A stretch of DNA of 38,370 bases from Actinomycetes bacterium (lineage in GTDB: Bacteria; Actinomycetota; Actinomycetes; Actinomycetales; BWSM-131): contig JBKHWX010000121.1 in the NCBI GenBank assembly GCA_046566325.1, positions 1-38,370 of the forward strand. Reading direction: 5' to 3'. The position numbers and the translations under genes were made by a program. The notes under the pieces were generated by a model. That model had not been told where the DNA came from. It saw only the letters and a list, made by a program, of their open reading frames with translations, and ran no database searches. Shown piece after piece: positions 8,211 through 21,353 of the stretch; position 1 is the first letter of the stretch; the number at the start of each line of letters is the position of its first letter.

Positions 8211-9052
8211 AGCTCACCGTGCTCATGACCGTCTACGACGGCGCGGAGCCGGACCAGCTGCGACGTGCGCTCGAGAGCGTGGTCCGGCAGACCCGGGTGC
8301 CGGACGAGATCCTCGTCGTGGAGGACGGGCCCCTGCGTCCGGCGTTGCGGGAGGTGCTCGCGCGCTTCCAGGACGACCGTCGGGACGTCGTCCGCCTGCT
8401 GCCGCTCCCCGAGAACGTCGGCGGCGGCGCGGCCTCCGACGTGGGCCTTCGGGCGGCGACGTGGGACGTCGTCGCGAAGATGGACGCGGACGACGTGGCC
8501 ATGCCGACGCGGTTCGAGACCCAGCTGAGGCTGCTCGAGGAGCAGGGGCTCGACGTGGTCGGGTCGAGCATGCTGGAGTTCGAAGGCGCCGAGAGCAACG
8601 TCGTGGGGCTGCGCCGTCCCCCTCTCTCCCACCAGGAGATCGCGCGGTACGCCCGCCTGCACAACCCGCTCAACCATCCCACCGTGATGATGCGACGGGA
8701 CGCGGCCCTGCGGGCCGGCGGGTACGTCGAGATCAAGTACGTCGAGGACTACGACCTGTGGGCCCGGATGCTCGCGTCGGGAGCGAGGTTCGGCAACGTC
8801 GCCGAGCCGTTGCTGCTCTTCCGGACGTCGTCCGCGATGTACCGGCGCCGTGCCGGCGTGGCGCTCCTGCGGTCGGAGTGGGTGCTGCAGCGTCGGCTGC
8901 AGGAGCTCGGGCTCGTCAGCGGCTGGCAGCGGGCACGGAACCTCGTGCTCCGGTGCACCTTCCGGCTGCTGCCCACCGGCCTGCTGCGGCTCGCGTACGC
9001 CCGGCTGCTCCGGGCGCGGAGGGCGTCAGACGCTGCGGCTGGGCTCCGGTGA
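8207..9052 (+). CDS. Glycosyltransferase family 2 (AmsE-like)
   Basis: LTVLMTVY, VVEDGPL, AKMDADD, NHPTVMMRR, EDYDLW. Confidence 0.9.
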   Translation: MKLTVLMTVYDGAEPDQLRRALESVVRQTRVPDEILVVEDGPLRPALREVLARFQDDRRDVVRLLPLPENVGGGAASDVGLRAATWDVVAKMDADDVAMPTRFETQLRLLEEQGLDVVGSSMLEFEGAESNVVGLRRPPLSHQEIARYARLHNPLNHPTVMMRRDAALRAGGYVEIKYVEDYDLWARMLASGARFGNVAEPLLLFRTSSAMYRRRAGVALLRSEWVLQRRLQELGLVSGWQRARNLVLRCTFRLLPTGLLRLAYARLLRARRASDAAAGLR

Positions 9053-9997
9053 CGGCTGAGCGTCGGGTGACGCCTGAGCCTGAGGTGACGGATGGGCCTC
9101 GCGTGACGGATGGGCCTTCGCTGAGGGCTGAGCCTTCGCTGACGGCTCGGCCTGGGCGGACAAGTGGCGGCGCGCCGGACGCTGCCTCCGCAACCGTCCG
9201 AACGCCTGACCGATCGCGTGCTGTCCCGTGGCGAGGCCCATCCGCGCCCTGACGATGTACGGGACGAGCCGGCTCGGGATACGGAACGAGATGGCCGTCG
9301 TCCCCGCCGGCCAGACCCGCACGACCTCCTGCTCCGCCACGGTCTGCCGCTCGTGCTCGAGCCCGCTGGTCGGCAGCCAGGCATCCAGCGCCTCCCGCCA
9401 GGGACCCGGGTCACCCCAGGTCGCGTACAGCTTGTGCGACGTGGTCACGAGCACATGGAGACCGCCCGCCACCTCCCCCCACACGACCGCCGCCACCCCG
9501 GGCGTGTGCTCGCTGCGGTAGTCGTCGAAGACGACCACTCCGTCGGGGGCGAGCAGCGTGCGAGCGGCCTCGACGTCACCGACGACGTGCTCGTACAGGT
9601 GGGAGGCGTCGATATGGACGAACCGGTGCGTCCCATGGCTGGCAGAAGCGGTGATCTGCGAGCTCGGCGCCCTCACGACGACCGGGAGCTCGCCGTGGAT
9701 GCGCCGGTAGTTCTGCTCGAACCGCTCCTGCGACAGGCCTGGGTACTGCCCGGTGTTCTCGTCGGCGTTCTCGTCGTCGCCCGGGTTCGCGCCGAACAGG
9801 TCGATGACGGTGAAGGTCTCGCCCGGACGCACGTAGGCACCGATGAGGGCCGCGCTCTTGCCGAGGTAGGCGCCCAGCTCGGCGACATCGCCTCCGAGGT
9901 CTCGGGCGGACAGGAAGAAGCGGAAGAGGGCCTTGTCCGTGCCCGTGAACCAGCCCTCGATCCCGTCGATCTCGCTGTCGGTGACGTCCCGCCGCAT
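9026..9997 (-). CDS. Class I SAM-dependent methyltransferase (Methyltransf_24-like)
   Basis: IEGWF, ELGAYLGKS (motif I), FVHIDASHLY, GVVVFDDY. Start set at MRRDVTD. Confidence 0.88.
   Translation of the reverse strand: MRRDVTDSEIDGIEGWFTGTDKALFRFFLSARDLGGDVAELGAYLGKSAALIGAYVRPGETFTVIDLFGANPGDDENADENTGQYPGLSQERFEQNYRRIHGELPVVVRAPSSQITASASHGTHRFVHIDASHLYEHVVGDVEAARTLLAPDGVVVFDDYRSEHTPGVAAVVWGEVAGGLHVLVTTSHKLYATWGDPGPWREALDAWLPTSGLEHERQTVAEQEVVRVWPAGTTAISFRIPSRLVPYIVRARMGLATGQHAIGQAFGRLRRQRPARRHLSAQAEPSAKAQPSAKAHPSREAHPSPQAQASPDAQPSPEPSRSV
9050..9157. repeat. Six degenerate 18-bp tandem units
   Basis: Units tgacggctgagcgtcggg, tgacgcctgagcctgagg, tgacggatgggcctcgcg, tgacggatgggccttcgc, tgagggctgagccttcgc, tgacggctcggcctgggc. 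They encode the S-x-x-A-x-P tail of the methyltransferase. Confidence 0.85.
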
Positions 9998-10101
9998 GCC
10001 GCGCATCCTCCCACAGCGGTGAACCGCGGCTGTCAGAGGACGACGGCCGCTCGCCGGGCGTGCTGCCCGGGAGCGGTCGTCGTCCTCGATGAGCGTCGAC
10101 G

Positions 10102-11493
10102 TCAGCGTGCCTGCGTGGTCGACACCCAGACGGCGCCGTCGGTGCCGCGCACGAACACAGCCATCTTCTTGTCGAGCCGGCCGACGAGGGCAGGTCCCGC
10201 GTCGGTCTGGCCGCCGGCGTCGGACCAGCCCAGCCAGCCTGCCGAGTAGCCGCGCCGCTTGACCCTGCGGTCCTTGCCCACGCTGGCGACCTCCAGCATG
10301 TTCGTGGCGGGAGCGGCGATCGCGGGGTCGGAGGTGCTCTGGCCGCCCAGGTTCAGCCAGGGCGTCCACGTGGTCCGCAGAGAGCGGTGCCATACGCCTC
10401 CGTCCGTCCCGGTCACCACGAGGTCGATCCGCCCCGGCCCGTCGGAGGTCACGGAAGGCGCCGAAGCCAGCCCACCGCCGAGAGACTTCCATCCGCTCCA
10501 GCTGCCGCCGGAGTACGAGCGCTGCCACAGCGCCTTGTCGGTGCCTCGGACGAACACGTCCATGCCGCCCGGCTTCGCCGACACCGCCGCGGGGGCGGAG
10601 TCCAGCGTGCCGCCGAGACTCTCCCAGGCACTCCACGTCTTCCCGGTCCGGGTCCGGTGCCAGAGGGCGTTGTCGGTGCCGCGGACGAAGACGTCGACGC
10701 GATCCTTCGCCGGCGAGGCCACAGCGGGGCTCAGGTCCGTCGTCCCGCCGAGACCCTCCCAGGGTGACCAGCTGCCGCTGAAGCTCCGCGAGTACAGAGC
10801 TCGGTCGGTCCCGACCGTGACGACCTCCATGCCGTCCGACGGCGTGGAGAGGGCCGCGGGGCGGCCGATGATCCCGCCTCCGAGGGACTGCCAGGCGCTG
10901 TACTGGAGGGTGTACCAGGACGTCTCTCCCCGGGCCCCCGCCCAGGACATAGAGATGTGGACGTGGTTGCGGTGGCAGATGTTGTCGTCGACCGGGCTCG
11001 TCCGGACCGACACGCAGTCGCTGTACTCCCGCCAGCCGGCGGCGGTGTTGTACAGGGAGAAGATGCGGCTGTCCCAGATGACGTACTGGATGCCGAGCCG
11101 GCGCGCCATCGCGTGGTGGTTGCCGTACTCATCGTCCCGCAGCAGCCACTCGAGGAACGACTCGGCGGTCGCGCGCTGGTCGGGCACCCGCGAGTTGGTC
11201 ATCCAGTCGATGGCCCGGCCTTCCTCGTGCCCGCTGTTGCTTGCGGTGCACGCTCGGGAGATGTTGCTGGTGATCGACGTGCCGTAGGTCGCCTTGAGCA
11301 GCCGGACCAGCGCCTCCGCCCCTGGCTTCGGTGTCGGGTCGCAGCCGGACTCCGCCTCGTACCGGGAGTAGGCGTCGATGCTGCGCGGAAACGGCGGTGC
11401 GGAGGGTGCGACCGCGGACGCCGGAGAGGCGACGCCGAGGACGGTGCCGAGAAGGGCCAAGGGAACGAGAAGGCGCAAGAACGAGAGGTTCAT
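10102..11493 (-). CDS. Secreted protein: putative Zn-peptidase (DD-peptidase/M15-like fold) plus six PLL-like beta-propeller repeats
   Basis: Signal peptide ending ASA. HEEGRAID and HRNHVHIS motifs. Six W-x-x-W-x-x-LGG...P-A-V...D-V-F-V-R-G-T-D-x-A-L-W repeats. Confidence 0.8.
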   Translation of the reverse strand: MNLSFLRLLVPLALLGTVLGVASPASAVAPSAPPFPRSIDAYSRYEAESGCDPTPKPGAEALVRLLKATYGTSITSNISRACTASNSGHEEGRAIDWMTNSRVPDQRATAESFLEWLLRDDEYGNHHAMARRLGIQYVIWDSRIFSLYNTAAGWREYSDCVSVRTSPVDDNICHRNHVHISMSWAGARGETSWYTLQYSAWQSLGGGIIGRPAALSTPSDGMEVVTVGTDRALYSRSFSGSWSPWEGLGGTTDLSPAVASPAKDRVDVFVRGTDNALWHRTRTGKTWSAWESLGGTLDSAPAAVSAKPGGMDVFVRGTDKALWQRSYSGGSWSGWKSLGGGLASAPSVTSDGPGRIDLVVTGTDGGVWHRSLRTTWTPWLNLGGQSTSDPAIAAPATNMLEVASVGKDRRVKRRGYSAGWLGWSDAGGQTDAGPALVGRLDKKMAVFVRGTDGAVWVSTTQAR

Positions 11494-11535
11494 GAGACGT
11501 GACCACGCAATCGGTAGGCGGCGTTCCCTTACGGG

Positions 11536-11562
11536 ATCGGCCTGCCGGCCTGATCACTTGAG
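11536..11562 (-). promoter_or_regulatory. Putative FliA/sigma28-type promoter CTCAAG-N15-GCCGAT
   Basis: Minus strand ctcaag tgatcaggccggcag gccgat, about 43 nt upstream of the start at 11493. Same spacing as the copies at 15664 and 17375. Confidence 0.65.
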
Positions 11563-11632
11563 GTGAGGAATGTTCACCTCTCTGTAGCCGGGGGCGGACG
11601 GCGCGCCGCTCGGCGTCCTGCGCGTCGTCTCG

Positions 11633-13384
11633 TCAGCGCCCGGGGCTGGTGAACAGAGCGCACGTGGGGGTCGTGCCGGACGCGCGCCACCCGGCTCGGG
11701 TCAGGAGCTCGTCAGCGGCGTCCTCCGTCTCGACGCAGGCCACGGCCACGTCGAGCTCGGACAGTGCCCGCAGCACCGCTGCATCCTCGCCGTCCATGCG
11801 GTCCCCGTCGGCGAAGCGCTCGAGCAGAAGCCGGTCGTCGAGGTGCCCGCCGGGTACGGAGCGGAGTGCGGCCATGTAGTCGCCCCTGCTGACGACGGGG
11901 TGCACGCGGGCGGAGACAAGGCTCACCGCGAACGAGGTGCTCGTGGGAGCCAGGACCGGATGCGACGCGCCGTCAGAGGTGGCCACGCTCACGACCTGCC
12001 GTGCCGCCTCCAGGTCAGGTTCGGGAACCTTCCACCGGGGAAGGGTGATGGCCGCTCCCGCGTTCTTCGGCGACCACAGCGGGAGCCCGGTCCCTACCAG
12101 GGCGCCCACGGCGAGGACGGCGACGAGGCCCCGCCACGCAGGCGATGACCGTGCGCTCGCCAGGAGCGACACCGCGGCGCCGACCAGCGCGGGGAGCGGC
12201 GCCACCCATGCCAGCCGCCACAGGATCAGGCCGGCACCGGTGGCGGCGTCGATCGTGTGCAGGGTGGCGGGTGCCAGGACGGCGCAGGTGCCGAGCACGC
12301 TGAGGAGCGCGACCGCGCGGCCCACGCCCCGCGCGCCCAGCCAGCCGAGCGCCAGCCCGACCACCGCGGGGACGACGACGGCGCCGCTTCCGAGCACAGA
12401 GGCGACGACCTGCATGCTTCCCGGCGCGGACACGTCAGGCAGTGGGGGCGCCCCGGGGACCGACACGGAGACGAGCGCCGTCGTGACGGGGTAGACCGCG
12501 ACGGCTGCCGCTCCGGCCGCAGCTCGCAGATCTCGTCTCAGCACCGCTACCACTCCGAGGACGCACGCGACCACCGGCACCACGAAGAACGCGGAGGTGG
12601 TGAGTCCCACACCTGCGACTGACGCCCCCGTCATCAAGATCAGACTGCGCCGGGACCGGCTCCGCAGCCAGTCCGTACCCACCGCGTACAGGTACGGAAC
12701 GACGACCGCGACGAACAGGACCTTCCCCTGCCAGATCCGCCCCACGTGCAGGTTGCCGAAGGACGCATGGTCGGCACCGCCCCACAGGATGAACACGAGC
12801 GCCGCGACCAGCGCGAGCGAGGGCGCGGACACCCGCCACGACACGAGCAGCCGGTGCAGCGCGAGGACGGCGACGGCGGCCCCGACGGGAGTCGCGACCA
12901 GGTAGACGACCGTCCCCGCCTCGAGACCCGCGGCGCGAGCCACGGCACCGAGCAGGGTCTCCCAGGAGGTGACCGGGGGATAGCCGCTCGCAACCGGGGG
13001 GTAGACACCGGCCGAGAAGACCGTGTCGCGGGTGGGGATGAGCCCCAGCTGCCGGACCGCTACCGAGCGGCCCACGTAGACGATGTCGTCGGCGTCCGGC
13101 CGGGTGAGCAGCAGCGAGAAGACGGCCATCGCACAGGCCAGGCCGACCGGCACGTAGCGACCGGCGCTCCGCCGTCCCCGGGAAGGCACGGACGGCCGGC
13201 CGCGGGTCAGCCAGACGACCACGCCGGCCGACAGGGCAACCCACACGAGGGCCACCGCGAGCAGCGGCATGCTCAGCAGCAGCCCGAGGTGGTACGCCAG
13301 CGTCCATGCGGCCAGCAGACCCAGGGCGAGGTCGACGAGGAGGTCCAGACGGCCGGCCGGCGGCGCGGCGGCGCGTGCTCCCAT
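11633..13384 (-). CDS. Polytopic membrane protein, DUF6077-like, probable GT-C glycosyltransferase
   Basis: Many hydrophobic segments, an acidic PDADDIVY loop, and GNLHVGRIWQGKVLF. ATG 13384 has a GAGGGG RBS. Confidence 0.75.
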   Translation of the reverse strand: MGARAAAPPAGRLDLLVDLALGLLAAWTLAYHLGLLLSMPLLAVALVWVALSAGVVVWLTRGRPSVPSRGRRSAGRYVPVGLACAMAVFSLLLTRPDADDIVYVGRSVAVRQLGLIPTRDTVFSAGVYPPVASGYPPVTSWETLLGAVARAAGLEAGTVVYLVATPVGAAVAVLALHRLLVSWRVSAPSLALVAALVFILWGGADHASFGNLHVGRIWQGKVLFVAVVVPYLYAVGTDWLRSRSRRSLILMTGASVAGVGLTTSAFFVVPVVACVLGVVAVLRRDLRAAAGAAAVAVYPVTTALVSVSVPGAPPLPDVSAPGSMQVVASVLGSGAVVVPAVVGLALGWLGARGVGRAVALLSVLGTCAVLAPATLHTIDAATGAGLILWRLAWVAPLPALVGAAVSLLASARSSPAWRGLVAVLAVGALVGTGLPLWSPKNAGAAITLPRWKVPEPDLEAARQVVSVATSDGASHPVLAPTSTSFAVSLVSARVHPVVSRGDYMAALRSVPGGHLDDRLLLERFADGDRMDGEDAAVLRALSELDVAVACVETEDAADELLTRAGWRASGTTPTCALFTSPGR

Positions 13385-13535
13385 GCGACCCCCTCTGCCA
13401 CCGCCCGTGCCGGCCCGACGGTATCCGCCGACCTCCGGGCACGACGAAGGGCGGGCCTCCGCGGCTGCTGTTCGCGCCGGGAGGCCCGCCCTGGTGGAGC
13501 TCTGCCGTCTGCTGGCGGGAAGGCCCGCAGCAGAC

Positions 13536-15548
13536 CTACTGCGACTGTCCGGACAGGAGCCAGACGGCGCCGTCCGTACCGCGCGCCGCGAGACTGATGC
13601 TCCCGTCTCCCGCACTGGCGAGGGCCGGGCCCTCGGACGTCGTGCCGCCGACGTCCGACCAGGACTGCCAGCCGACCGAGTAGGCGCGCCTCTTGACGTG
13701 GCGGTCGGTCCCCGTGGTCGCGATCTCGAGGGTGTCGGCGGCCGGAGCGGTGACCGCCGCGTCGCTCCCGGTGTCGCCACCCAGGCCGAGCCACGGCGTC
13801 CAGCTACCCCGCAGCGAGCGGTGCCAGACCGCCCGGTCGGAGCCGACGGCGACGACGTCCACACGGCCCTCGCCGTCGGAGGTGGCGGCCGGCCCCGACG
13901 TCAGCGCGCCGCCGAGAGACGACCACGAGGACCACGTCCCGTTGTCGTAGGCCCGGTGCCAGAGCGCCTTGTCGGTCCCCTGCACGAGCACGTCGATCCG
14001 GCCGGGACGCGACGAGACGGCCGCCGGCGAGGACGCGAGGGTGCCTCCGAGGCTCCGCCACGCGGACCAGGCACCGTTCTCGTAGGTGCGCTGCCACAGC
14101 GCGCGGTCCTGACCACGGACGAAGACGTCCCGTCGGTCGCTTCCCCAGCTCGAGACGGCCGGGCTGAGGTCGGTCGCTCCTCCGAGCGACTGCCACGAGG
14201 ACCAGGAGCTGCTCTTCGACTTCAGGTACACCGCCTTGTCCGAACCGACGGCGACGACGTCCAGACGACCCGGTGCGGGAGCCACCGCGGCAGGACGTCC
14301 GAGGATGGCGCCGCCGAGGGACTGCCAGGTGGAGTACTTCACGGCCCGCGGGACCGGCTTCGCGGCCGCCGGTGGCTGCGACGTCCCCTGCAGCTGCTGC
14401 ACCGTCGTCCGGATGGCCGGCAGCTGTGAGTACAGGTTGTTCCCGGGGCACTCGGTGAGGCCCACGTCCCGGTGACCGAAGATGACCGGAAGGGTCACGC
14501 GCTGACCCACCGCGTACCTCGCGGTCCCGCCGCCCGCGCTGGTGAGCGTGACGGAGCCGGTCGGGCTGACCCCGTACATCCCCAGCTTCCAGGCGGCGAC
14601 GCGCGAGATCGCGTTGACCATCGCCGGCGGAGCCGACGTCGTGGAGTAGTTGCCGAGTGCGGAGATGCCGGCCGTGCTCGCGTTGAAGCCACCGGCGTGC
14701 GCGCCCTGGACCGCCTTGTCGACGCCCCCGGCACGGCCCTCGTAGATGTTCCCCCACTTGTCGACCACGAAGTTGTAGCCCAGGTCGCACCACCCCAGGA
14801 CCTTGGTGTGGTACGCGTAGTCCGCCCGCAGCTGGGCCATGGCCTGAGCCTGGGTGGAGTAGGAGTTGCCACCGGCGGTGTGGTGCACGGTGATGCCCTT
14901 GACGGACGACATGTACGTGACCGAGTTGCACTTCAAGCGCTCGTCCGCGCCCCACTGAGCGCGGCTGATGATGGCGGGACGGGCAGCGGCAGCGCCAGCC
15001 GTCGCGAGAGGTTGAGCGCTCGCACCGGCGGAGGTGCCCGGGTCCACGAGCCGCACGTCGAGCTGGTCGGGCAGCTGGCCGGCCTGCGGGCGGACCCGCA
15101 CCTGCACCTGGTCGCTGTCCCCTACCCAGAGCGGCTCGGTCGCGGTCGTGATCGCAGAACCGGCGTCCGGCGCGCCGGGATCAGGAGCGCTGTCGAGCGT
15201 GGAGAGCTTCTGCCAGGCCTGCCAGCGGCCACCTGTGGCCACGCGCACCTCGACGCTCGGGGTGCGGTCCTTGCCCGTCCACGTGGCGCCCACCATCGAG
15301 AAGTTGCGGACGGCGATCGGCGCGGACTCCAGCGTCCCCTGCCCCGCCTCCGCGTTCGGCTGAGCAGAGACGCCGCTGGACGGCGCGGCCGCGGCCTTGA
15401 CGCCCTGGAGGCCGTCGAGACGGACGGAGACGGTCTGCAGCTCGGGAGACACCGGCTGCGGCGAGTCCGCCCAGACCGGCCCGATGACGGGTGCTGCGAC
15501 CAGCAGAGCGGCCGTCCCGACCGCCGTGATCACGGAATGAACCTTCAT
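13536..15548 (-). CDS. Secreted N-acetylmuramoyl-L-alanine amidase (Amidase_2/PGRP-like) plus six PLL-like repeats
   Basis: Signal peptide, IISRAQWGA, TVHHTAG, GWCDLGYNF, GAHAGGFN, GHRDVGLTECPG, then the propeller repeats. ATG 15548 has a GAGG RBS. Confidence 0.9.
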   Translation of the reverse strand: MKVHSVITAVGTAALLVAAPVIGPVWADSPQPVSPELQTVSVRLDGLQGVKAAAAPSSGVSAQPNAEAGQGTLESAPIAVRNFSMVGATWTGKDRTPSVEVRVATGGRWQAWQKLSTLDSAPDPGAPDAGSAITTATEPLWVGDSDQVQVRVRPQAGQLPDQLDVRLVDPGTSAGASAQPLATAGAAAARPAIISRAQWGADERLKCNSVTYMSSVKGITVHHTAGGNSYSTQAQAMAQLRADYAYHTKVLGWCDLGYNFVVDKWGNIYEGRAGGVDKAVQGAHAGGFNASTAGISALGNYSTTSAPPAMVNAISRVAAWKLGMYGVSPTGSVTLTSAGGGTARYAVGQRVTLPVIFGHRDVGLTECPGNNLYSQLPAIRTTVQQLQGTSQPPAAAKPVPRAVKYSTWQSLGGAILGRPAAVAPAPGRLDVVAVGSDKAVYLKSKSSSWSSWQSLGGATDLSPAVSSWGSDRRDVFVRGQDRALWQRTYENGAWSAWRSLGGTLASSPAAVSSRPGRIDVLVQGTDKALWHRAYDNGTWSSWSSLGGALTSGPAATSDGEGRVDVVAVGSDRAVWHRSLRGSWTPWLGLGGDTGSDAAVTAPAADTLEIATTGTDRHVKRRAYSVGWQSWSDVGGTTSEGPALASAGDGSISLAARGTDGAVWLLSGQSQ

Positions 15549-15663
15549 GTCAACCTCGTCGACCTCGACATCTCGGACAGCGCGAGGAGTCCTGGGACCT
15601 CCACCACCGGAGTCACCACCGCAGTCGGTTCCGGTGCGGGGTCCGCCATCGCACGAGAGAGTC

Positions 15664-15690
15664 GTCGGCCGAAAAGGGCCGGCACTTGAG
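15664..15690 (-). promoter_or_regulatory. Putative FliA/sigma28-type promoter CTCAAG-N15-GCCGAC
   Basis: Minus strand ctcaag tgccggcccttttcg gccgac, upstream of the amidase. Confidence 0.6.
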
Positions 15691-15920
15691 CCGATCGGAG
15701 GACGCCTTCGCGTGCGGGTCGTGACGGCGTTCCACGGATCGGGCCCAGGTGCGGGTCGCGAGGAGCCGCAACGAGGACGTTCCGCATCCGCCCTCGGGGC
15801 TCTCAGGTCGCTCACGAGGCTCGGCGGCCGAGCGGCGAGCTCGGTGTCGACGAGGTGTCTGGCGGGAGCGCCTCGTGCGCCTAGTGATCACAAGGGCCGC
15901 GGAGGCCGTAGTCTCCTGCG

Positions 15921-17261
15921 GTGCTGCCTACAGGGCCGAGAGCCGCGCGCGGACCGGCGTGGGTGCGCTGGACCGTCGTAGCCCTGGTCGTGGGCGTGCT
16001 CGCCCTGGGAGCGGTGGCCCGCTACCTCCCGATCCAGCAGTCCTTGTCCAGGGCGGACGAGTACGTGTTCATCGATGCGCTCGACAAGGCGTCACGAGGC
16101 GACGTGGTGGAGCAGGGAGAGCACCTCGACCCCTACACGCTGACGCTGCTGCAGTGCCGGGGCATCTCCGACTTCGGCCCCGTCGGCCCCCCCTGCGGCC
16201 AGCCGTTCCCGCTCTCGAAGGCTCCCTTCGGGGGGGTCACCTCGGCGGACGCCTACACGCCCACCTACTTCTTCCTCACGGCCTGGCTCGCGAAGGGCCT
16301 GCTGCTCACGCCCTTCGTCCAGGACCTGCTGGTCGCCGGACGGCTCGTCGACGGCCTGTGGCTGTGGGCGGGGCTGATGGCGACGATCGCCCTCGCGCGA
16401 TCCCTCGGGGCGTCAGGAGCGGCGTCCGTCGCCGTCGCGCTGCTGATGCTCACCGCACCTGCGACACGGTGGACGAACACGTACCTCACCCCGGACTCCA
16501 TGTCGATCCTGCTCGGCGCGGTCGCCGCACTCGCCGCCGTGAAGGTCTCCCGCCGGCAGTGGCCCGTGTGGGCCATGGTGCCGGTCGCGGCGCTGGCGAC
16601 GGCGGTCAAGGTGACCAACATCGTGGTCCTGGGAGCGGTGGTCGCCTTCCTGGTGCTCAAAGCGCTCCCGAGGCCGACCGCGCAGGTCGCCGGGGAGCCG
16701 AGGACACGAGAGCTCGCCCGGTCCCTGGTCGCCGCCGGCGTCGTCATGGGCACGACGCTCGCAACCGAGCTCGCCTGGCTGTGGGTCCGGTCCCGCCTGG
16801 CCGTCGGACCACCGCCGGAACAGAACCTCCAGCCGTTCCCGCTCACGCCGCACAACGCGGGGTCGACGATGGTGCGGTTCATGCGCGGCATCGTCGTCGG
16901 GCCCGACAGCGTCAACCACCTGGGAGACATCGCCTCGTTCCGGGGCGAGGTCATCTCCTGGCTCCTCGTCTCCGGTGTCGTGGCGGCCGCCCTCTTCGGT
17001 TACCGGCGCCGCGAAGACGTCGTGCACCTCGGCCGGGCGACGATGTTGACGCTGGTCACCGCGGGGCCGGGTCTCCTCGTGCTGCTGCTCGCCGCTCAGG
17101 TGCCGGTGTTCGACCTGCCCGAGCGATATGCGAGCTCGGCGCTGCCCCTGATGGGGGCGGTCACAGCAGCACTCGTCAAAGACCGGTGGGTGGCCCTCGC
17201 CGTCCTGGCCTTCGCCGTGGTCGTCTACGTCCACCTCGTGGTCTTCGCCGGAACCTGGTGA
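15921..17261 (+). CDS. Polytopic membrane protein, probable GT-C (PMT-like) glycosyltransferase
   Basis: N-terminal TM followed by a DE motif (SRADEYVF), YTPTYF, TPDS, AVKVT and a C-terminal PERY. About 10 hydrophobic segments. Confidence 0.7.
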   Translation: MLPTGPRAARGPAWVRWTVVALVVGVLALGAVARYLPIQQSLSRADEYVFIDALDKASRGDVVEQGEHLDPYTLTLLQCRGISDFGPVGPPCGQPFPLSKAPFGGVTSADAYTPTYFFLTAWLAKGLLLTPFVQDLLVAGRLVDGLWLWAGLMATIALARSLGASGAASVAVALLMLTAPATRWTNTYLTPDSMSILLGAVAALAAVKVSRRQWPVWAMVPVAALATAVKVTNIVVLGAVVAFLVLKALPRPTAQVAGEPRTRELARSLVAAGVVMGTTLATELAWLWVRSRLAVGPPPEQNLQPFPLTPHNAGSTMVRFMRGIVVGPDSVNHLGDIASFRGEVISWLLVSGVVAAALFGYRRREDVVHLGRATMLTLVTAGPGLLVLLLAAQVPVFDLPERYASSALPLMGAVTAALVKDRWVALAVLAFAVVVYVHLVVFAGTW

Positions 17262-17374
17262 CCACCGCGCACCGGCTGCGCGAGGTGGACGGAGCGAGCA
17301 CGTCCCGCCCGCCGACATGCCGCCGGAGCCGCCGGGGGTGAGTCGTCCCAGGACGCCCGACACCCCCGCCAAGC

Positions 17375-17401
17375 CTCAAGACCGGGCCCGCTCGGACCGA
17401 A
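17375..17401 (+). promoter_or_regulatory. Putative FliA/sigma28-type promoter CTCAAG-N15-ACCGAA
   Basis: ctcaag accgggcccgctcgg accgaa, upstream of the third secreted protein. Confidence 0.55.
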
Positions 17402-17581
17402 TCAGTTGGTCAGGCACCTCGCTTCCGACTGGTGCCGAGCAGGCTCCAGTCGAGAGGCGCTCCGTACGTGGCCACTCCCTTCCGCACAACCCCCGGGCGA
17501 CGCTCGGCGGGCACCGGTCCCAGCCGCGCCCCAGCCGGGGCAGTCGCTCTCCGAGCCCTTCCCGGCGCCTACGGCAAAGCA

Positions 17582-19840
17582 GTGCGAGGACTGCTGACGC
17601 TCACCCTCGCCCTCGCTCCCGTGGTGGCGGTCTTCACCCCGCAGGCGGCGCAGGCGCTGACCGGAAGCGAGTTCGACCCCGGGAACATCATCACGGACAC
17701 GGTCTTCTTCGACTCGGGAACCATGACGGCCGAGCAGGTGCAGGCCTTTCTCGACAGCAAGGGCTCGCACTGCCGGTCGGGCAGCGTCCCCTGCCTGAAG
17801 GACTACCGGCAGACCACGTCGGACAGGCCGGCGGAGGCGAAGCTCTGCCAGGGCTACACCGGCCGACCCGACGAGTCGGCGGCGCAGATCATCGTCAGGG
17901 TGGCGGACAGCTGCGGCATCAACCCTCGCGTCCTGATCGTCCTGCTGCAGAAGGAGCAGGGCCTCGTCAGCAGCACGCAGCCGACCGCCGCCAAGTACAA
18001 CACCGCGACGGGCTACGGCTGCCCGGACTTCGCGGTCTGCGACACGCAGTACTACGGGTTCTTCAACCAGGTCTACTCGGCGGCTCGCCGGTTTCGGAGC
18101 TACGGCGTGAGCCCCGGCTTCAGGTACCAAGCCGGACGGACCAACCTCATCCAGTACAACCCCAACGTCTCCTGCGGCAGCAAGTCCGTCTACATCGAGA
18201 ACCGGGCGACGGCCGCCCTGTACAACTACACGCCGTACGTGCCGAACGAGGCCGCGCTGAACTTCCTCTACGGGACGGGTGACGACTGCAGCGCCTACGG
18301 CAACCGCAACTTCTGGCGCTTCTTCACCGAGTGGTTCGGATCGACCCAGGCGGGCAGCTTCCTCGTCCGCAGCGAGAACAACCCGACCGTCTACCTGCTG
18401 GTGGACGACGCCAAGTACCCCGTCCCGAGCCTGGCCCTGCTGTCGGCGCTCGACCGACTGGGACCCGTCGGGGTCGTCTCCCAGAAGTTCCTCGACGCGA
18501 GGGCCACCGGCCCGACGATGGGCCGGCTGGTCCGGTCCACGAACGGGACGATCTACTTCGTCGACGCCGGGATCAAGCTGTACGTCCCGACCTGCCAGAT
18601 GGCCGCCGACTACGGGTACTCCTGCTCGCAGACGACGCTCCTGCCGGACGCCCAGCTCGCGTTGCTGAAGACCGGCCCGTCGCTGACCTCGGTGTTCGAG
18701 ACCACGAGCGGCAAGCGGTTCTTCGTCCAGGGCGCGGCGAAGCGCGAGGTGTACGACGCTCAGTCGCTAGCGTCGGCCGGCGTTCCGGCCACGTCGGTCC
18801 GGCTGCTCGAGAGCGCCCTGGACCACCTCCCGTACGGAACTCCCGTGATCCGGGACGGCGTCGTGGCTCGAAGCCGCGCCACCGGCGCGCTGACCCTGCA
18901 CCAGGGCGGACGAGGCAGCGCGGTCGGTGCAGCCCTGCTGAGCCAGACGCCGCTCGGCGCCCTGGTGCCGGAGGAGCCGCTCGACCAGCAGAGCATCGAC
19001 CGGCTGGCGGACGCCGGGACGCTGACGGGCCTCGTGCAGTCGGCGGACGGCGCACGGGCCTACGCGCTCACGGCGACGGGCAAGATGCGCCTGGCCGAGC
19101 CGGGCCAGTGGTCGGGAAGGTTGACGGCCCTGCCCGACTCCCTGCTGGCACAGATCCCGGACGAGGGCACCATCGCGCCGTCCTCGTTCGTGAAGTCCTC
19201 CACGAAGGCGGACGTCTACCTGGTGCTGGACGGCGAGAAGCGGTACGTCCGCACGTGGGGCGACCTCACGACGTTGAGCGGGGGCGCCGCGCCGCAGATC
19301 TCGACGCTGCCCGACGAGGTGCTGGGCGGCCTCCCCTCCGGAGGACCGGTCCTCGCGCCCGGCACACTGGTGTACGCACCCGGCTCGCCGGCGGTGTCGC
19401 TGGTCGACGGCCTGCGCCGCCGCATCCCGGTCACGAGCTTCAGCGTCGTGGACGAGACCGGCGCCGGAGCCCTGGTGCAGGTGGACGCGTCGACGATGTC
19501 GAAGTACACCCCCTCCGCTCGTCCGATGTCCGTCGCGGTGTCGTGCAACGGCCACACCTACCTCGGCGTCTTCGGCGTCCTGAGGCGCATCCCGGACGCG
19601 CTGCTGGGCGACTACCGCCTCACCCCGGTCACGCTCGACCCGCTGACGTGCTCCGCGCTGCGCCCGTCCGAGCAGGCGCTCGGCCGCTTCCTGCGCACTC
19701 CGGACGGCACCATCTACTACGTGGCGAACGGCGGCAAGCGCTGGCTGACCTCGTACGCGGAGTACGTGCGGCTCGGCGGCACCGCCGCGAACACGACGGC
19801 GGTCTCCCCGCTGGTGGCGTCCGCCGTCCCGACCCTGTGA
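17582..19840 (+). CDS. Secreted protein: putative lysozyme-like wall hydrolase domain plus about 9 C-terminal repeats
   Basis: Signal peptide ending AQA. FDPGNIITD, GINPRVLIVLLQKEQGL, GYGCPD, YGFFNQV, ATAALYNYTPY. C-terminal repeats resemble (G)RLVRS-x-x-GT(I/V)Y(F/L)V-x-x-G-x-K. Start GTG 17582 is inferred. Confidence 0.75.
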   Translation: MRGLLTLTLALAPVVAVFTPQAAQALTGSEFDPGNIITDTVFFDSGTMTAEQVQAFLDSKGSHCRSGSVPCLKDYRQTTSDRPAEAKLCQGYTGRPDESAAQIIVRVADSCGINPRVLIVLLQKEQGLVSSTQPTAAKYNTATGYGCPDFAVCDTQYYGFFNQVYSAARRFRSYGVSPGFRYQAGRTNLIQYNPNVSCGSKSVYIENRATAALYNYTPYVPNEAALNFLYGTGDDCSAYGNRNFWRFFTEWFGSTQAGSFLVRSENNPTVYLLVDDAKYPVPSLALLSALDRLGPVGVVSQKFLDARATGPTMGRLVRSTNGTIYFVDAGIKLYVPTCQMAADYGYSCSQTTLLPDAQLALLKTGPSLTSVFETTSGKRFFVQGAAKREVYDAQSLASAGVPATSVRLLESALDHLPYGTPVIRDGVVARSRATGALTLHQGGRGSAVGAALLSQTPLGALVPEEPLDQQSIDRLADAGTLTGLVQSADGARAYALTATGKMRLAEPGQWSGRLTALPDSLLAQIPDEGTIAPSSFVKSSTKADVYLVLDGEKRYVRTWGDLTTLSGGAAPQISTLPDEVLGGLPSGGPVLAPGTLVYAPGSPAVSLVDGLRRRIPVTSFSVVDETGAGALVQVDASTMSKYTPSARPMSVAVSCNGHTYLGVFGVLRRIPDALLGDYRLTPVTLDPLTCSALRPSEQALGRFLRTPDGTIYYVANGGKRWLTSYAEYVRLGGTAANTTAVSPLVASAVPTL

Positions 19841-20057
19841 CCCGCTCCGGTCGACCGGGAGCAGACCGGGTGGCCGACCTCCCTCTGCAACCGCCTCGAG
19901 GACCGCTCGCGCCACCGACGCGGCCTCCGCGGCAGCGGGACAGGCACGGATCGGCCTACGCAAACCCGACACGGTCTGACGCTAGAGTGCCTCGGGCTGC
20001 TTCTGTGCCTCCCGGCACGAGCCGGCGCTGAGGACGCGAGGGGCCGCCCCGCACCGC

Positions 20058-21353
20058 GTGCGTCGGGTGGGCTCGCGTCCCTGGAAGCGACTGGAAGGGG
20101 TCAGAGTGGGAGAGGCTGTGCGGCTGCTGGGCAGGGCTGTCCAGGTGACTCGCGACGAGGGCGTCCGGGCGGTCGCCGCCAAGGCACTCGCCCGCGCCGG
20201 GCGCCGCGTCGAGGCGCCGACCCCACCACCCAAGCAGGCCATCTCCATGCTGGTCCGGCGCGAGGACGCCCTGGAGGCCGACTGGACCGAGCCTCCCGCC
20301 TGGCAGCACGGCGGCAGGGAGCGGCGCCCCTACTCCGTCGCCTGGATCATGTCGCCGCCCGGTGAGAGCAGCGGCGGGCACCAGAACCTCTTTCGCTTCA
20401 TCCGGTTCATGGAGCAGCGCGGCCACCGCGTGACCATCTACCTCTACAGCAGCGACCCCAACTTCAGGGACGTCGACGGCGTCCGACGCATGGTCTCCAC
20501 GAGCCCGTCCTACTCGAGGGTCAGCGCCGCCATCCGTCTCTACGGGGACGACGGCGTGGCGCCGGACACGGACGCCATCTTCGCCACCGGATGGGAGACC
20601 GCGTACCCCGTGTTCCGGGACAGGTCCAGGGCCGAGCGCTTCTACTTCGTCCAGGACTTCGAGCCCTACTTCTACGCGATCGGCTCGGAGTCTGTTCTTG
20701 CGGAGAACACCTACCGCTTCGGGTTCTACGGCATCACCGCGGGCGCGTGGCTGAGCCGCAAGCTCTCCGACGAGTACGGCATGGCGACCGACCACTTCGA
20801 CTTCGGCGCCGACACGACGCACTACAACCTCGTGAACCGCGGGGAGCGACGCGAGGTGTTCTTCTACGCCAGGCCGGTAACGGTCCGGCGGGGTTTCGAG
20901 CTGGGCATCCTGGCGATGGAGCAGTTCGCGCGGATGTGCCCGGAGTACACGATCAACCTGGCCGGGTGGGACGTCGACGCGTGGGACATCCCGTTCGAGC
21001 ACGTCAACCTCAGGAGCCTTCCGGTCTCGCAGCTGAACGACCTCTACAACCGCTGCGCCGGTGCGCTCGTCCTCTCGCTGACCAACATGTCGCTCCTCCC
21101 CCTGGAGCTGCTCGCCAGCGGTGTCATCCCGGTGCTGAACGACGGACCGAACAACCGGCTCGTCTCCGACAACCCCCACATCGTCTACAGCGCCGCGACA
21201 CCGAAGGCGCTGGCACACACCCTCGCCGAGGTCGTCCGCCGCCCGGACCTACCGGACGTCGCGGAAGCCGCCGCTGCCAGCGTTGGTCACCAGGGGTGGG
21301 AGTCGTCGGGAGCCAAGTTCGTGGACATCTTCGAAAGGGTCATGTGTGGCTAG
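20058..21353 (+). CDS. WsaF-like GT-B glycosyltransferase (putative rhamnosyltransferase); start uncertain
   Basis: SGGHQNLFRF, FATGWETAY, YFVQDFEPYFY, FFYARP-x-T-x-RRGFELG, SLLPLEL. Confidence 0.82.
   Translation: MRRVGSRPWKRLEGVRVGEAVRLLGRAVQVTRDEGVRAVAAKALARAGRRVEAPTPPPKQAISMLVRREDALEADWTEPPAWQHGGRERRPYSVAWIMSPPGESSGGHQNLFRFIRFMEQRGHRVTIYLYSSDPNFRDVDGVRRMVSTSPSYSRVSAAIRLYGDDGVAPDTDAIFATGWETAYPVFRDRSRAERFYFVQDFEPYFYAIGSESVLAENTYRFGFYGITAGAWLSRKLSDEYGMATDHFDFGADTTHYNLVNRGERREVFFYARPVTVRRGFELGILAMEQFARMCPEYTINLAGWDVDAWDIPFEHVNLRSLPVSQLNDLYNRCAGALVLSLTNMSLLPLELLASGVIPVLNDGPNNRLVSDNPHIVYSAATPKALAHTLAEVVRRPDLPDVAEAAAASVGHQGWESSGAKFVDIFERVMCG

Follow-up and report, generated by a model that had tools for sequence, protein, structure and literature searches.

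Three copies of a two-part motif, CTCAAG-N15-RCCGA, precede three genes for secreted proteins in a 38,370-nucleotide (nt) stretch of actinomycete DNA (contig JBKHWX010000121.1 of assembly GCA_046566325.1; the whole stretch is called the window below, the contig C121 and the genome G000). We consider, with a probability of roughly 80%, that a sigma factor of the sigma-28 (WhiG/FliA) family reads these sites as promoters, which would place three predicted cell-wall hydrolases in one regulon with late flagellar, type IV pilus and cyclic di-GMP (c-di-GMP) genes. In such promoters CTCAAG would contain the -35 element, read either as CTCA or, shifted by one base, as TCAA, and RCCGA would form the -10 element. 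The three genes are predicted to encode a LAS-type zinc peptidase, an N-acetylmuramoyl-L-alanine amidase and a protein with a probable lysozyme-like domain, referred to here as the third protein. The G000 assembly comprises 2.88 Mb in 309 contigs and is 68% complete; the G+C content of the window is 71-72%.

Site 1, CTCAAG-N15-GCCGA(T), occupies positions 11537-11562 on the minus strand and ends 43 nt before the ATG (11493) of the peptidase gene. Site 2, CTCAAG-N15-GCCGA(C), lies at 15665-15690, also on the minus strand, 116 nt before the ATG (15548) of the amidase gene. Site 3, CTCAAG-N15-ACCGA(A), is found at 17375-17400 on the plus strand, 67 nt before the third gene if translation begins at GTG 17468, or 181 nt before it if translation begins at GTG 17582 (all distances measured from the end of RCCGA). 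The initial annotation of this DNA had placed three sites at these positions, in these orientations and with identical spacing, and they were found as claimed; the window contains 3 matches to the motif, whereas 100 dinucleotide-preserving shuffles averaged 0.07 and in no case had as many as 3. Each site falls within a non-coding gap and is oriented toward the next gene, the product of which has a signal peptide. It had also been claimed that the motif does not precede the biosynthetic genes of the window, and this was borne out by a search of C121 for intergenic CTCA-N16-18-RCCGA, which returned nothing beyond sites 1-3.

A scan of the whole window against Rfam gave no matches at gathering scores, indicating that no riboswitch or known leader accounts for the shared words, and between 11300 and 17700 neither sigma-70-type promoters nor intrinsic terminators were matched. 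The possibility that the three sites are copies of one duplicated segment was considered and rejected, because their flanks and spacers fail to align and share nothing beyond the two words.

The form of the sites corresponds to promoter consensuses reported for this sigma family in Actinobacteria. The initial annotation had cited a FliA-type consensus, and it is indeed in print: the main text of a recent preprint (10.64898/2026.01.14.699351) describes two clades of actinobacterial WhiG homologues, of which WhiG1 is linked to flagellar clusters and has the consensus CTCA-N16-17-GCCGAACT (-10 GCCGA), and WhiG2 is controlled by RsiG and has the consensus T(A/C)AA-N16-GCCGATAA (-10 GCCGA). In all three sites of the window CTCAAG-N15 reads both as CTCA-N17 and as TCAA-N16, so that CTCAAG-N15-RCCGA fits both published consensuses at once. 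A search of G000 for TAAA-type -35 elements at N16 found no intergenic sites, indicating that the classical TAAA form is not used in this genome. When the three window sites were aligned with two others, only CTCAAG and CGA were invariant. An invariant central CGA, a CTCA/TCAA -35 at fixed spacing, a sigma factor of the appropriate family encoded in the genome and copies of the motif before late flagellar genes are all found for these sites.

The genome was expected by the initial annotation to encode a sigma-28-family protein, and two members of the FliA/WhiG family were identified (TIGR02479 search, cut-off 189.6). The first is a WhiG-type sigma (C31:259-936) that scores 278.5 bits and matches Streptomyces venezuelae WhiG (PDB 6pfj chain A) at E 1.6e-98. 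The second is a FliA-like sigma (C116:4287-4928) that scores 175.5 bits with TIGR02479, 112-116 bits with WhiG and 111 bits with Escherichia coli FliA; its gene is divergently oriented and adjoins flgN-flgK-flgL and the start of the flagellin gene. Upstream of the FliA-like sigma gene lies a site of its own, CTCAAG-N15-GACGAC (C116:4218-4243), and in relatives CTCA-N17-xxCGA was found before genes of this type in 7/20 loci and a form with N18 in 4/20. This upstream site suggests either autoregulation or a WhiG-to-FliA cascade.

A candidate anti-sigma factor is also encoded. RsiG proteins carry a c-di-GMP-binding signature of two E-x3-S-x2-R-x3-(Q/H)-x3-D motifs (PMC8325347), and a 203-residue protein of G000 (C255:5739-6350) contains two E-x3-S-x2-R-x3-Q-x3-D motifs, at residues 42 and 156. 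This protein matches RsiG chain T of 6pfj at E 2.2e-16 and the Rubrobacter RsiG chains at 3e-4. Genes of G000 were called with our own crude procedure based on G+C at third codon positions (GC3), which gave 2,458 genes covering 89% of the genome; among them the C255 gene alone encodes the twin motif, and one other encodes a single copy. The C255 protein is thus a predicted RsiG homologue in what looks to be a unicellular soil actinobacterium.

Across G000 the motif is shared between the hydrolases and motility genes. Of the seven exact matches to CTCAAG-N15-RCCGA in the genome, two are coding and five intergenic; the latter comprise sites 1-3, the pilM site and one site ahead of a gene for a small unknown protein. 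Counting was then confined to gene-proximal sites, defined as intergenic and no more than 300 nt ahead of a same-strand gene. Under this definition CTCA[AG][GC]-Nx-RCCGA was found 7 times at N14 and 12 times at N15, compared with 0-3 times at each of 14 other spacings (8 to 23), and the variant CTCAA-Nx-RCCGA was found 8 times at N16, twice at N15, once at N17 and never at 11 other spacings. The 19 gene-proximal sites include motility and c-di-GMP genes (flgN-K-L, fliD, PilM, a PilB-type MshEN protein, an EAL-HDOD protein and a PilZ protein), along with the three window hydrolases, a CAP-domain protein with a propeller and HPF. The flagellin gene, located at the end of contig C116, and flgN are both preceded by CTCAGG-N14-GCCGATG; the site before fliD is CTCAAC-N15-GCCGA, and that before pilM is CTCAAG-N15-ACCGA, the same form as site 3. 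The expectation that a genome scan would recover flagellin and chemotaxis genes therefore held in part: flagellin, flgN-K-L, fliD, pilM and pilB carry the motif, but no chemotaxis gene was seen among the motif sites of G000.

To follow the sites across species, DNA upstream of homologues was collected from 150 genomes of the same order and searched with the strict pattern TCAAG-N15-[AGC][CA]CGA. For the amidase, the top 30 loci (28 with upstream DNA) contained the strict pattern in 11/28 cases, compared with 2 for the form with N14 and 0-1 for other spacings; a loose pattern was present in 13/28, located 35-158 nt before the estimated start. In a further set of 19 amidase loci from genomes encoding a WhiG/FliA sigma, a perfect CTCAAG-N15-RCCGATG was present in 4/19, and in genomes without a match to this sigma family (at E <= 1e-40) the motif was found in 0/20 amidase loci. 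For the LAS peptidase, the strict form was present in 5/28 loci (versus 0-1 at 15 other spacings) and the loose form in 8/28. Throughout these amidase and peptidase footprint sets, other spacings gave counts of 0-2.

Among named database records, the strict form was found before the amidase homologue in two from Kineococcus and three from Geodermatophilus, one of the latter being a metagenome-assembled genome, and also in several other genomes from metagenomes, with a weaker form in G. arenarius; the Rhodococcus, Nocardia, Mycobacterium, Streptomyces and Prauserella records did not have it at this position. In total 8/78 loci had the strict form and 12/78 the loose form, with 0-4 at other spacings (TCAAG core; the looser T[AC]AA and CTCA cores also gave at most 4). 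Conservation of the site before orthologues was seen for the amidase, whose site 2 is the best conserved of the three, and for the LAS peptidase, but not for the third gene.

A second genome of the same genus (G001, 92% complete) provided a closer comparison. Here an exact copy of the motif lies before the LAS homologue and none before the amidase homologue. G001 contains 10 exact copies, of which at least 4 stand ahead of gene starts in non-coding-looking sequence; these precede the LAS homologue, an orthologue of a small CxxC protein of G000, a GGDEF gene and a gene for a small membrane protein. Comparison of positions 9000-21000 with G001 DNA yielded four weak pieces only (66-89% identity), indicating that the locus as such is not conserved in this genome.

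Several observations weigh against assigning sites 1-3 to a sigma-28-family regulon. Site 3 has ACCGAA as its -10, which departs from GCCGA by one step. Loci encoding homologues of the third gene were without the motif in all 29 cases, of which 10 came from sigma-bearing genomes, as well as in the 10 cases of an earlier scan; a conserved promoter for the third gene was rejected on this basis, and site 3 is supported only from within the genome. By the loose pattern, 15/28 and 14/19 of the amidase loci in sigma-bearing genomes are without the motif, as are most LAS loci, including the two closest (L072 and L074; 59% identity). Within G000, the raw number of exact matches does not exceed those at other in-phase spacings (N9 11, N12 7, N18 10, N21 6, N24 6), and the excess becomes visible only after intergenic and coding DNA are split by our crude GC3-based caller. 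The remaining eight of the 19 gene-proximal sites precede genes that have no evident connection with the wall or with motility, namely those of a permease, a flavohaemoglobin, a phosphoesterase, a solute-binding protein, a DUF4235 protein and three unknowns, so some sites probably arose by chance. The genomes compared are kin and so lack independence as samples, and absences in G000 prove little because the genome is only 68% complete. Two DNA runs from one soil-metagenome study are listed for this stretch, with no RNA run among them. Lastly, the two published consensuses overlap, and therefore sequence alone cannot assign the sigma. As to the question whether the motif exceeds background frequency, the answer is divided: the raw genome count is at background, which consists of coding DNA with codon periodicity, whereas intergenic DNA ahead of genes lies far above it.

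Within a sigma-28-family regulon, the sites could in principle be read by the FliA-like sigma of C116 alone, in which case the hydrolases would belong strictly to the flagellar regulon and might open the thick wall for flagellum or pilus assembly or free swimming cells. We consider this narrower version of the reading given in the initial annotation unlikely. It is consistent with the fact that all three sites begin with CTCA, the flagellar-clade -35 reported for Actinoplanes missouriensis, that the fliD site shares the CTCAA-N16-GCCGA geometry, and that 10 of the 13 genomes with the motif before an amidase homologue encode both sigmas. However, the base preceding the conserved TCAAG upstream of orthologues may be C, G or A, and is often G or A (gTCAAG/aTCAAG; G012, G055, G121, G147, G146, G067, G052 and G125), a variability that fits T(A/C)AA better than CTCA. 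In addition, the motif is present before the amidase homologue in G019, G067 and G104 (92, 97 and 84% complete), where the only sigma of the family is of the approximately 280-bit class, and it is present in G001, where the only one is WhiG-type; neither a FliA-like sigma nor flagellin was found in any of these four genomes. Conversely, G023 and G064, which encode only the flagellar-type sigma of approximately 180 bits, lack the motif in 4/4 loci. Finally, the flagellin and flgN promoters of G000 differ in form from the window sites, having CTCAGG-N14-GCCGATG.

Because the conserved core is TCAAG and the motif persists in relatives without flagellin or a FliA-like sigma, the evidence, which comes from few and mutually related genomes, leans towards the WhiG/RsiG sigma responding to c-di-GMP, rather than the flagellar one, as the cognate factor. 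The motif would then more likely be linked to a switch in lifestyle than strictly to swimming. The initial annotation had proposed a motility- or development-coupled regulon, and this interpretation was largely right: the motif is shared with motility genes, although the third promoter is not conserved and the connection appears to be broader than swimming. The further proposal, that the hydrolases might release cells from clusters, amounts to the cell separation envisaged below, which would have its parallel in the vegetative autolysins that depend on SigD in Bacillus subtilis (PMC3865298).

A different kind of explanation would be that the shared words form a transcription-factor site, or a promoter for a sigma of another family (e.g. 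an envelope-stress extracytoplasmic function sigma), that merely resembles a sigma-28 promoter. Control of cell-wall hydrolases by envelope stress or two-component systems is common, and the spacers of the sites are G+C-rich, both of which speak for such a regulator. We nevertheless regard it as quite improbable, since the motif is two-part and non-palindromic with a fixed spacing and a sharp drop one base either way, both of its halves match the sigma-28-family consensus, it precedes flagellin, hook-associated, cap and pilus genes in G000, and before orthologues it was found only in genomes with a WhiG/FliA sigma (4/19 versus 0/20). Chance is scarcely credible: CTCAAG (Leu-Lys codons) and RCCGA (Ala-Asp codons) are common words in 72% G+C DNA, the genome-wide count at N15 resembles those at N9, N12, N18, N21 and N24, and every related genome has 4-41 exact matches, but the background matches are coding and follow codon periodicity, the intergenic excess ahead of genes is specific to the spacing, the shuffled window yields far fewer matches, and orthologues in several families have the motif at the corresponding position.

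If the sites are promoters of the WhiG-type sigma, the following scheme can be drawn. At high c-di-GMP, the RsiG homologue (C255) would hold back the WhiG-type sigma (C31); at low c-di-GMP, RsiG would free it and RNA polymerase would start at promoters of the form TCAAG-N15-RCCGA. Transcribed from these promoters would be the genes of the pilus and the flagellar cap, those of c-di-GMP enzymes and of the flagellar-cluster sigma, and those of the three wall hydrolases. The C116 sigma might act as a second tier, reading the CTCAGG-N14-GCCGATG promoters of flagellin and flgN-K-L. Lectin propellers would aim the hydrolases, perhaps at the rhamnose-type glycan encoded nearby, and cleavage of amide, peptide and probably glycan bonds in the septal wall would allow daughter cells to separate and disperse. 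Generalized, this would mean that in Kineococcus, Geodermatophilus, the present lineage and similar unicellular actinobacteria of soil the RsiG-c-di-GMP-WhiG switch directly controls a conserved amidase and LAS autolysin module, which in the present lineage would be directed by propellers to the organism's own wall glycan of rhamnose type. The switch would also stand over the flagellar sigma in a cascade of two tiers, such that a fall in c-di-GMP would lead to wall cleavage, separation and dispersal in one step, with or without flagella. We put this generalized scheme forward tentatively, judging it rather more likely to fail in some part than to hold throughout.

The RsiG-c-di-GMP-WhiG switch governs sporulation in Streptomyces and pili in Rubrobacter. 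The regulons described for WhiG1 and WhiG2 (10.64898/2026.01.14.699351) and for Rubrobacter WhiG-RsiG (PMC8325347) resemble the one proposed here in their consensuses, in targets such as flagellin, type IV pili and c-di-GMP enzymes, and in the pair of sigma clades; the preprint's main text notes that the two consensuses are inseparable by sequence when both sigmas are present. The words amidase, peptidoglycan and cell wall do not occur in that main text, which contains hydrolase once (as a Gene Ontology term) and autolysis once (for other phyla), and its supplementary target tables may well list such genes. Likewise, no link between WhiG and a peptidoglycan hydrolase appears in the titles or abstract openings of the literature surveyed, including a 2013 review (PMC4255298). 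Control of autolysins by a sigma-28-family factor is classical, and actinobacterial WhiG/FliA consensuses with predicted regulons are already in print; as far as seen, an amidase and LAS module as a conserved WhiG target in Actinomycetota has not been spelled out there, with the same reservation as to the supplementary tables of the preprint.

The autolysins under SigD in B. subtilis are the amidase LytC, the glucosaminidase LytD and the endopeptidase LytF. As in the system proposed here, motility genes there share their flagellar-family sigma with secreted wall hydrolases (PMC3865298). Three bond specificities are represented among these enzymes, as is predicted here. The two differ in phylum and in the -35 element, which is CTCA/TCAA here and TAAA in B. 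subtilis. The targeting parts are non-homologous, with PLL-lectin-like propellers here in place of the Bacillus wall-binding repeats. Control here is likely to be by RsiG and c-di-GMP, in place of the secreted FlgM of B. subtilis. A further parallel is offered by A. missouriensis, where the promoters of the FliA family (FliA1-3) serve not only flagellar and pilus genes but also genes of the sporangium programme unrelated to motility (PMC13689560; PMC13083903), and where the clpX promoter is lost in a triple fliA mutant (PMC13689560). Unlike the unicellular-looking lineage studied here, A. missouriensis is a filamentous sporangium former without RsiG (PMC8325347). A wall hydrolase is reportedly involved in spore maturation in Actinoplanes, to go by the title of Mitsuyama et al. 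2019.

No new kind of mechanism is revealed by these sites. Their interest lies in a concrete target set for WhiG/FliA sigmas in non-sporulating actinobacteria, which in these organisms points to a direct path from c-di-GMP to wall cleavage and the separation of cells. Bacillus is the classical case of autolysins paired with motility, and high-G+C Gram-positive bacteria would thereby have a counterpart to it, with unrelated enzymes and a different anti-sigma. For annotation, TCAAG-N15-GCCGA(T) before amidase and LAS-peptidase genes may serve to mark the regulon across several families.

The initial annotation had described the products downstream of the three sites as secreted hydrolases. Signal peptides are predicted in all three, and the hydrolase label holds fully for the amidase, well for the LAS peptidase and only moderately for the third protein. 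The amidase gene (13536-15548, minus strand) encodes 670 residues, beginning with the signal peptide MKVHSV...VWA and ending in a PLL-like propeller. Its product matches Pfam Amidase_2 (E 1.3e-17; 64.8 bits versus a cut-off of 26), and H, E and C columns are invariant across 23 sequences.

The LAS-type peptidase gene (10102-11493, minus strand) encodes 463 residues with a signal peptide, a VldE-like LAS domain and a PLL-lectin-like beta-propeller. Its first 200 residues gave no match in Pfam. A model of the N-terminal domain (predicted local distance difference test, pLDDT, 93) was matched by Foldseek to 9fln, 9flm and 9flh, the C-terminal zinc-binding domain of pneumococcal VldE, at E 6e-6 to 5e-5 (for the best, E 6e-6, probability 1.0 and a template modelling score of 0.73 on the target), followed by a zinc DD-peptidase, Hedgehog N-domains, MepA and LdcB. 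The putative metal-site residues H62-x6-D69 and H147/H150/H152 (H-x2-H-x-H) are invariant in 14 aligned sequences, and an Atlas lead, PF26571, agrees with the family. The modelled domain is thus well assigned as a LAS-type zinc peptidase.

The third gene (17468-19840, plus strand; start at 17468 or 17582) encodes a secreted protein of approximately 790 residues, with a Cys-rich N-terminal domain and a long C-terminal part. The N-terminal domain has no sequence match in Pfam, NCBIfam or the PDB; it is 48-58% identical to its homologues and has an invariant K-E in LQKEQ (E100). Structural comparison of its model (pLDDT 73.7) returned LytB GH73 (Z 7.4), a staphylococcal phage tail lysin (7.1) and a clostridial autolysin (6.4), with MltF, PlyC, MltC and Slt as further neighbours. 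The top 50 structural rows are mostly lysins, lytic transglycosylases or chitinases, with a best VIA Z of 7.4, values of Z under 8 being middling; Foldseek alone gave E >= 0.15 at best. Together these comparisons moderately support a lysozyme-like peptidoglycan glycosidase fold as the probable one. The C-terminal portion of approximately 460 residues (18458-19840) has no family match.

The propellers of the peptidase and the amidase (10102-10890 and 13536-14324) are 59% identical to each other and match the PLL/PHL lectins of Photorhabdus (PDB 6rfz, E 3e-87; 5c9o, 3e-77). Such a propeller is encoded by only three genes of the assembly, the third being that of the CAP-domain protein (C111:8941-10056), and all three genes have the motif. 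As these genes are located within or close to the locus for a rhamnose- and methyl-sugar wall glycan, it may be speculated that the propeller binds the cell's own wall glycan.

Between the amidase and peptidase genes lies a gene for a DUF6077 membrane protein (11633-13384, minus strand; Pfam DUF6077, E 2.8e-11). It has no copy of the motif of its own and may be co-transcribed with the amidase gene from site 2. Directly upstream of site 3 a 446-residue protein without a family is encoded (15921-17261). The surrounding genes of the window encode RmlA/C/D, GT2 and GT4 transferases, a WsaF-like transferase, Wzm/Wzt, methyltransferases and an LCP ligase, a locus for synthesis and export of a rhamnose-type wall glycan that also includes methyl-sugar genes; none of these genes has the motif. 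The amidase and LAS genes adjoin one another in many genomes of the order (e.g. G121, G113, G138, G021, G082, G023, G147 and G015), and in a few (G147, G015 and G038) a homologue of the third gene lies beside the amidase gene, forming a recurring wall-hydrolase cluster.

Among the motif sites of G000 outside the window, three others are of note. The gene for the ribosome hibernation factor HPF (C186:10806-11634) is preceded by CTCAGG-N14-GCCGAT and that for a GH114 glycosidase (C67:3139-4083) by the variant CTCAAA-N15-GCCGAA, which hints at links to dormancy and to the breakdown of matrix polysaccharide. A protein of approximately 115 residues with two CxxC pairs and no Pfam family (C115:712-1151 in G000; contig C55 in G001) is preceded by an exact CTCAAG-N15-GCCGAA in both genomes, and would on this evidence be a conserved member of the regulon in the genus.

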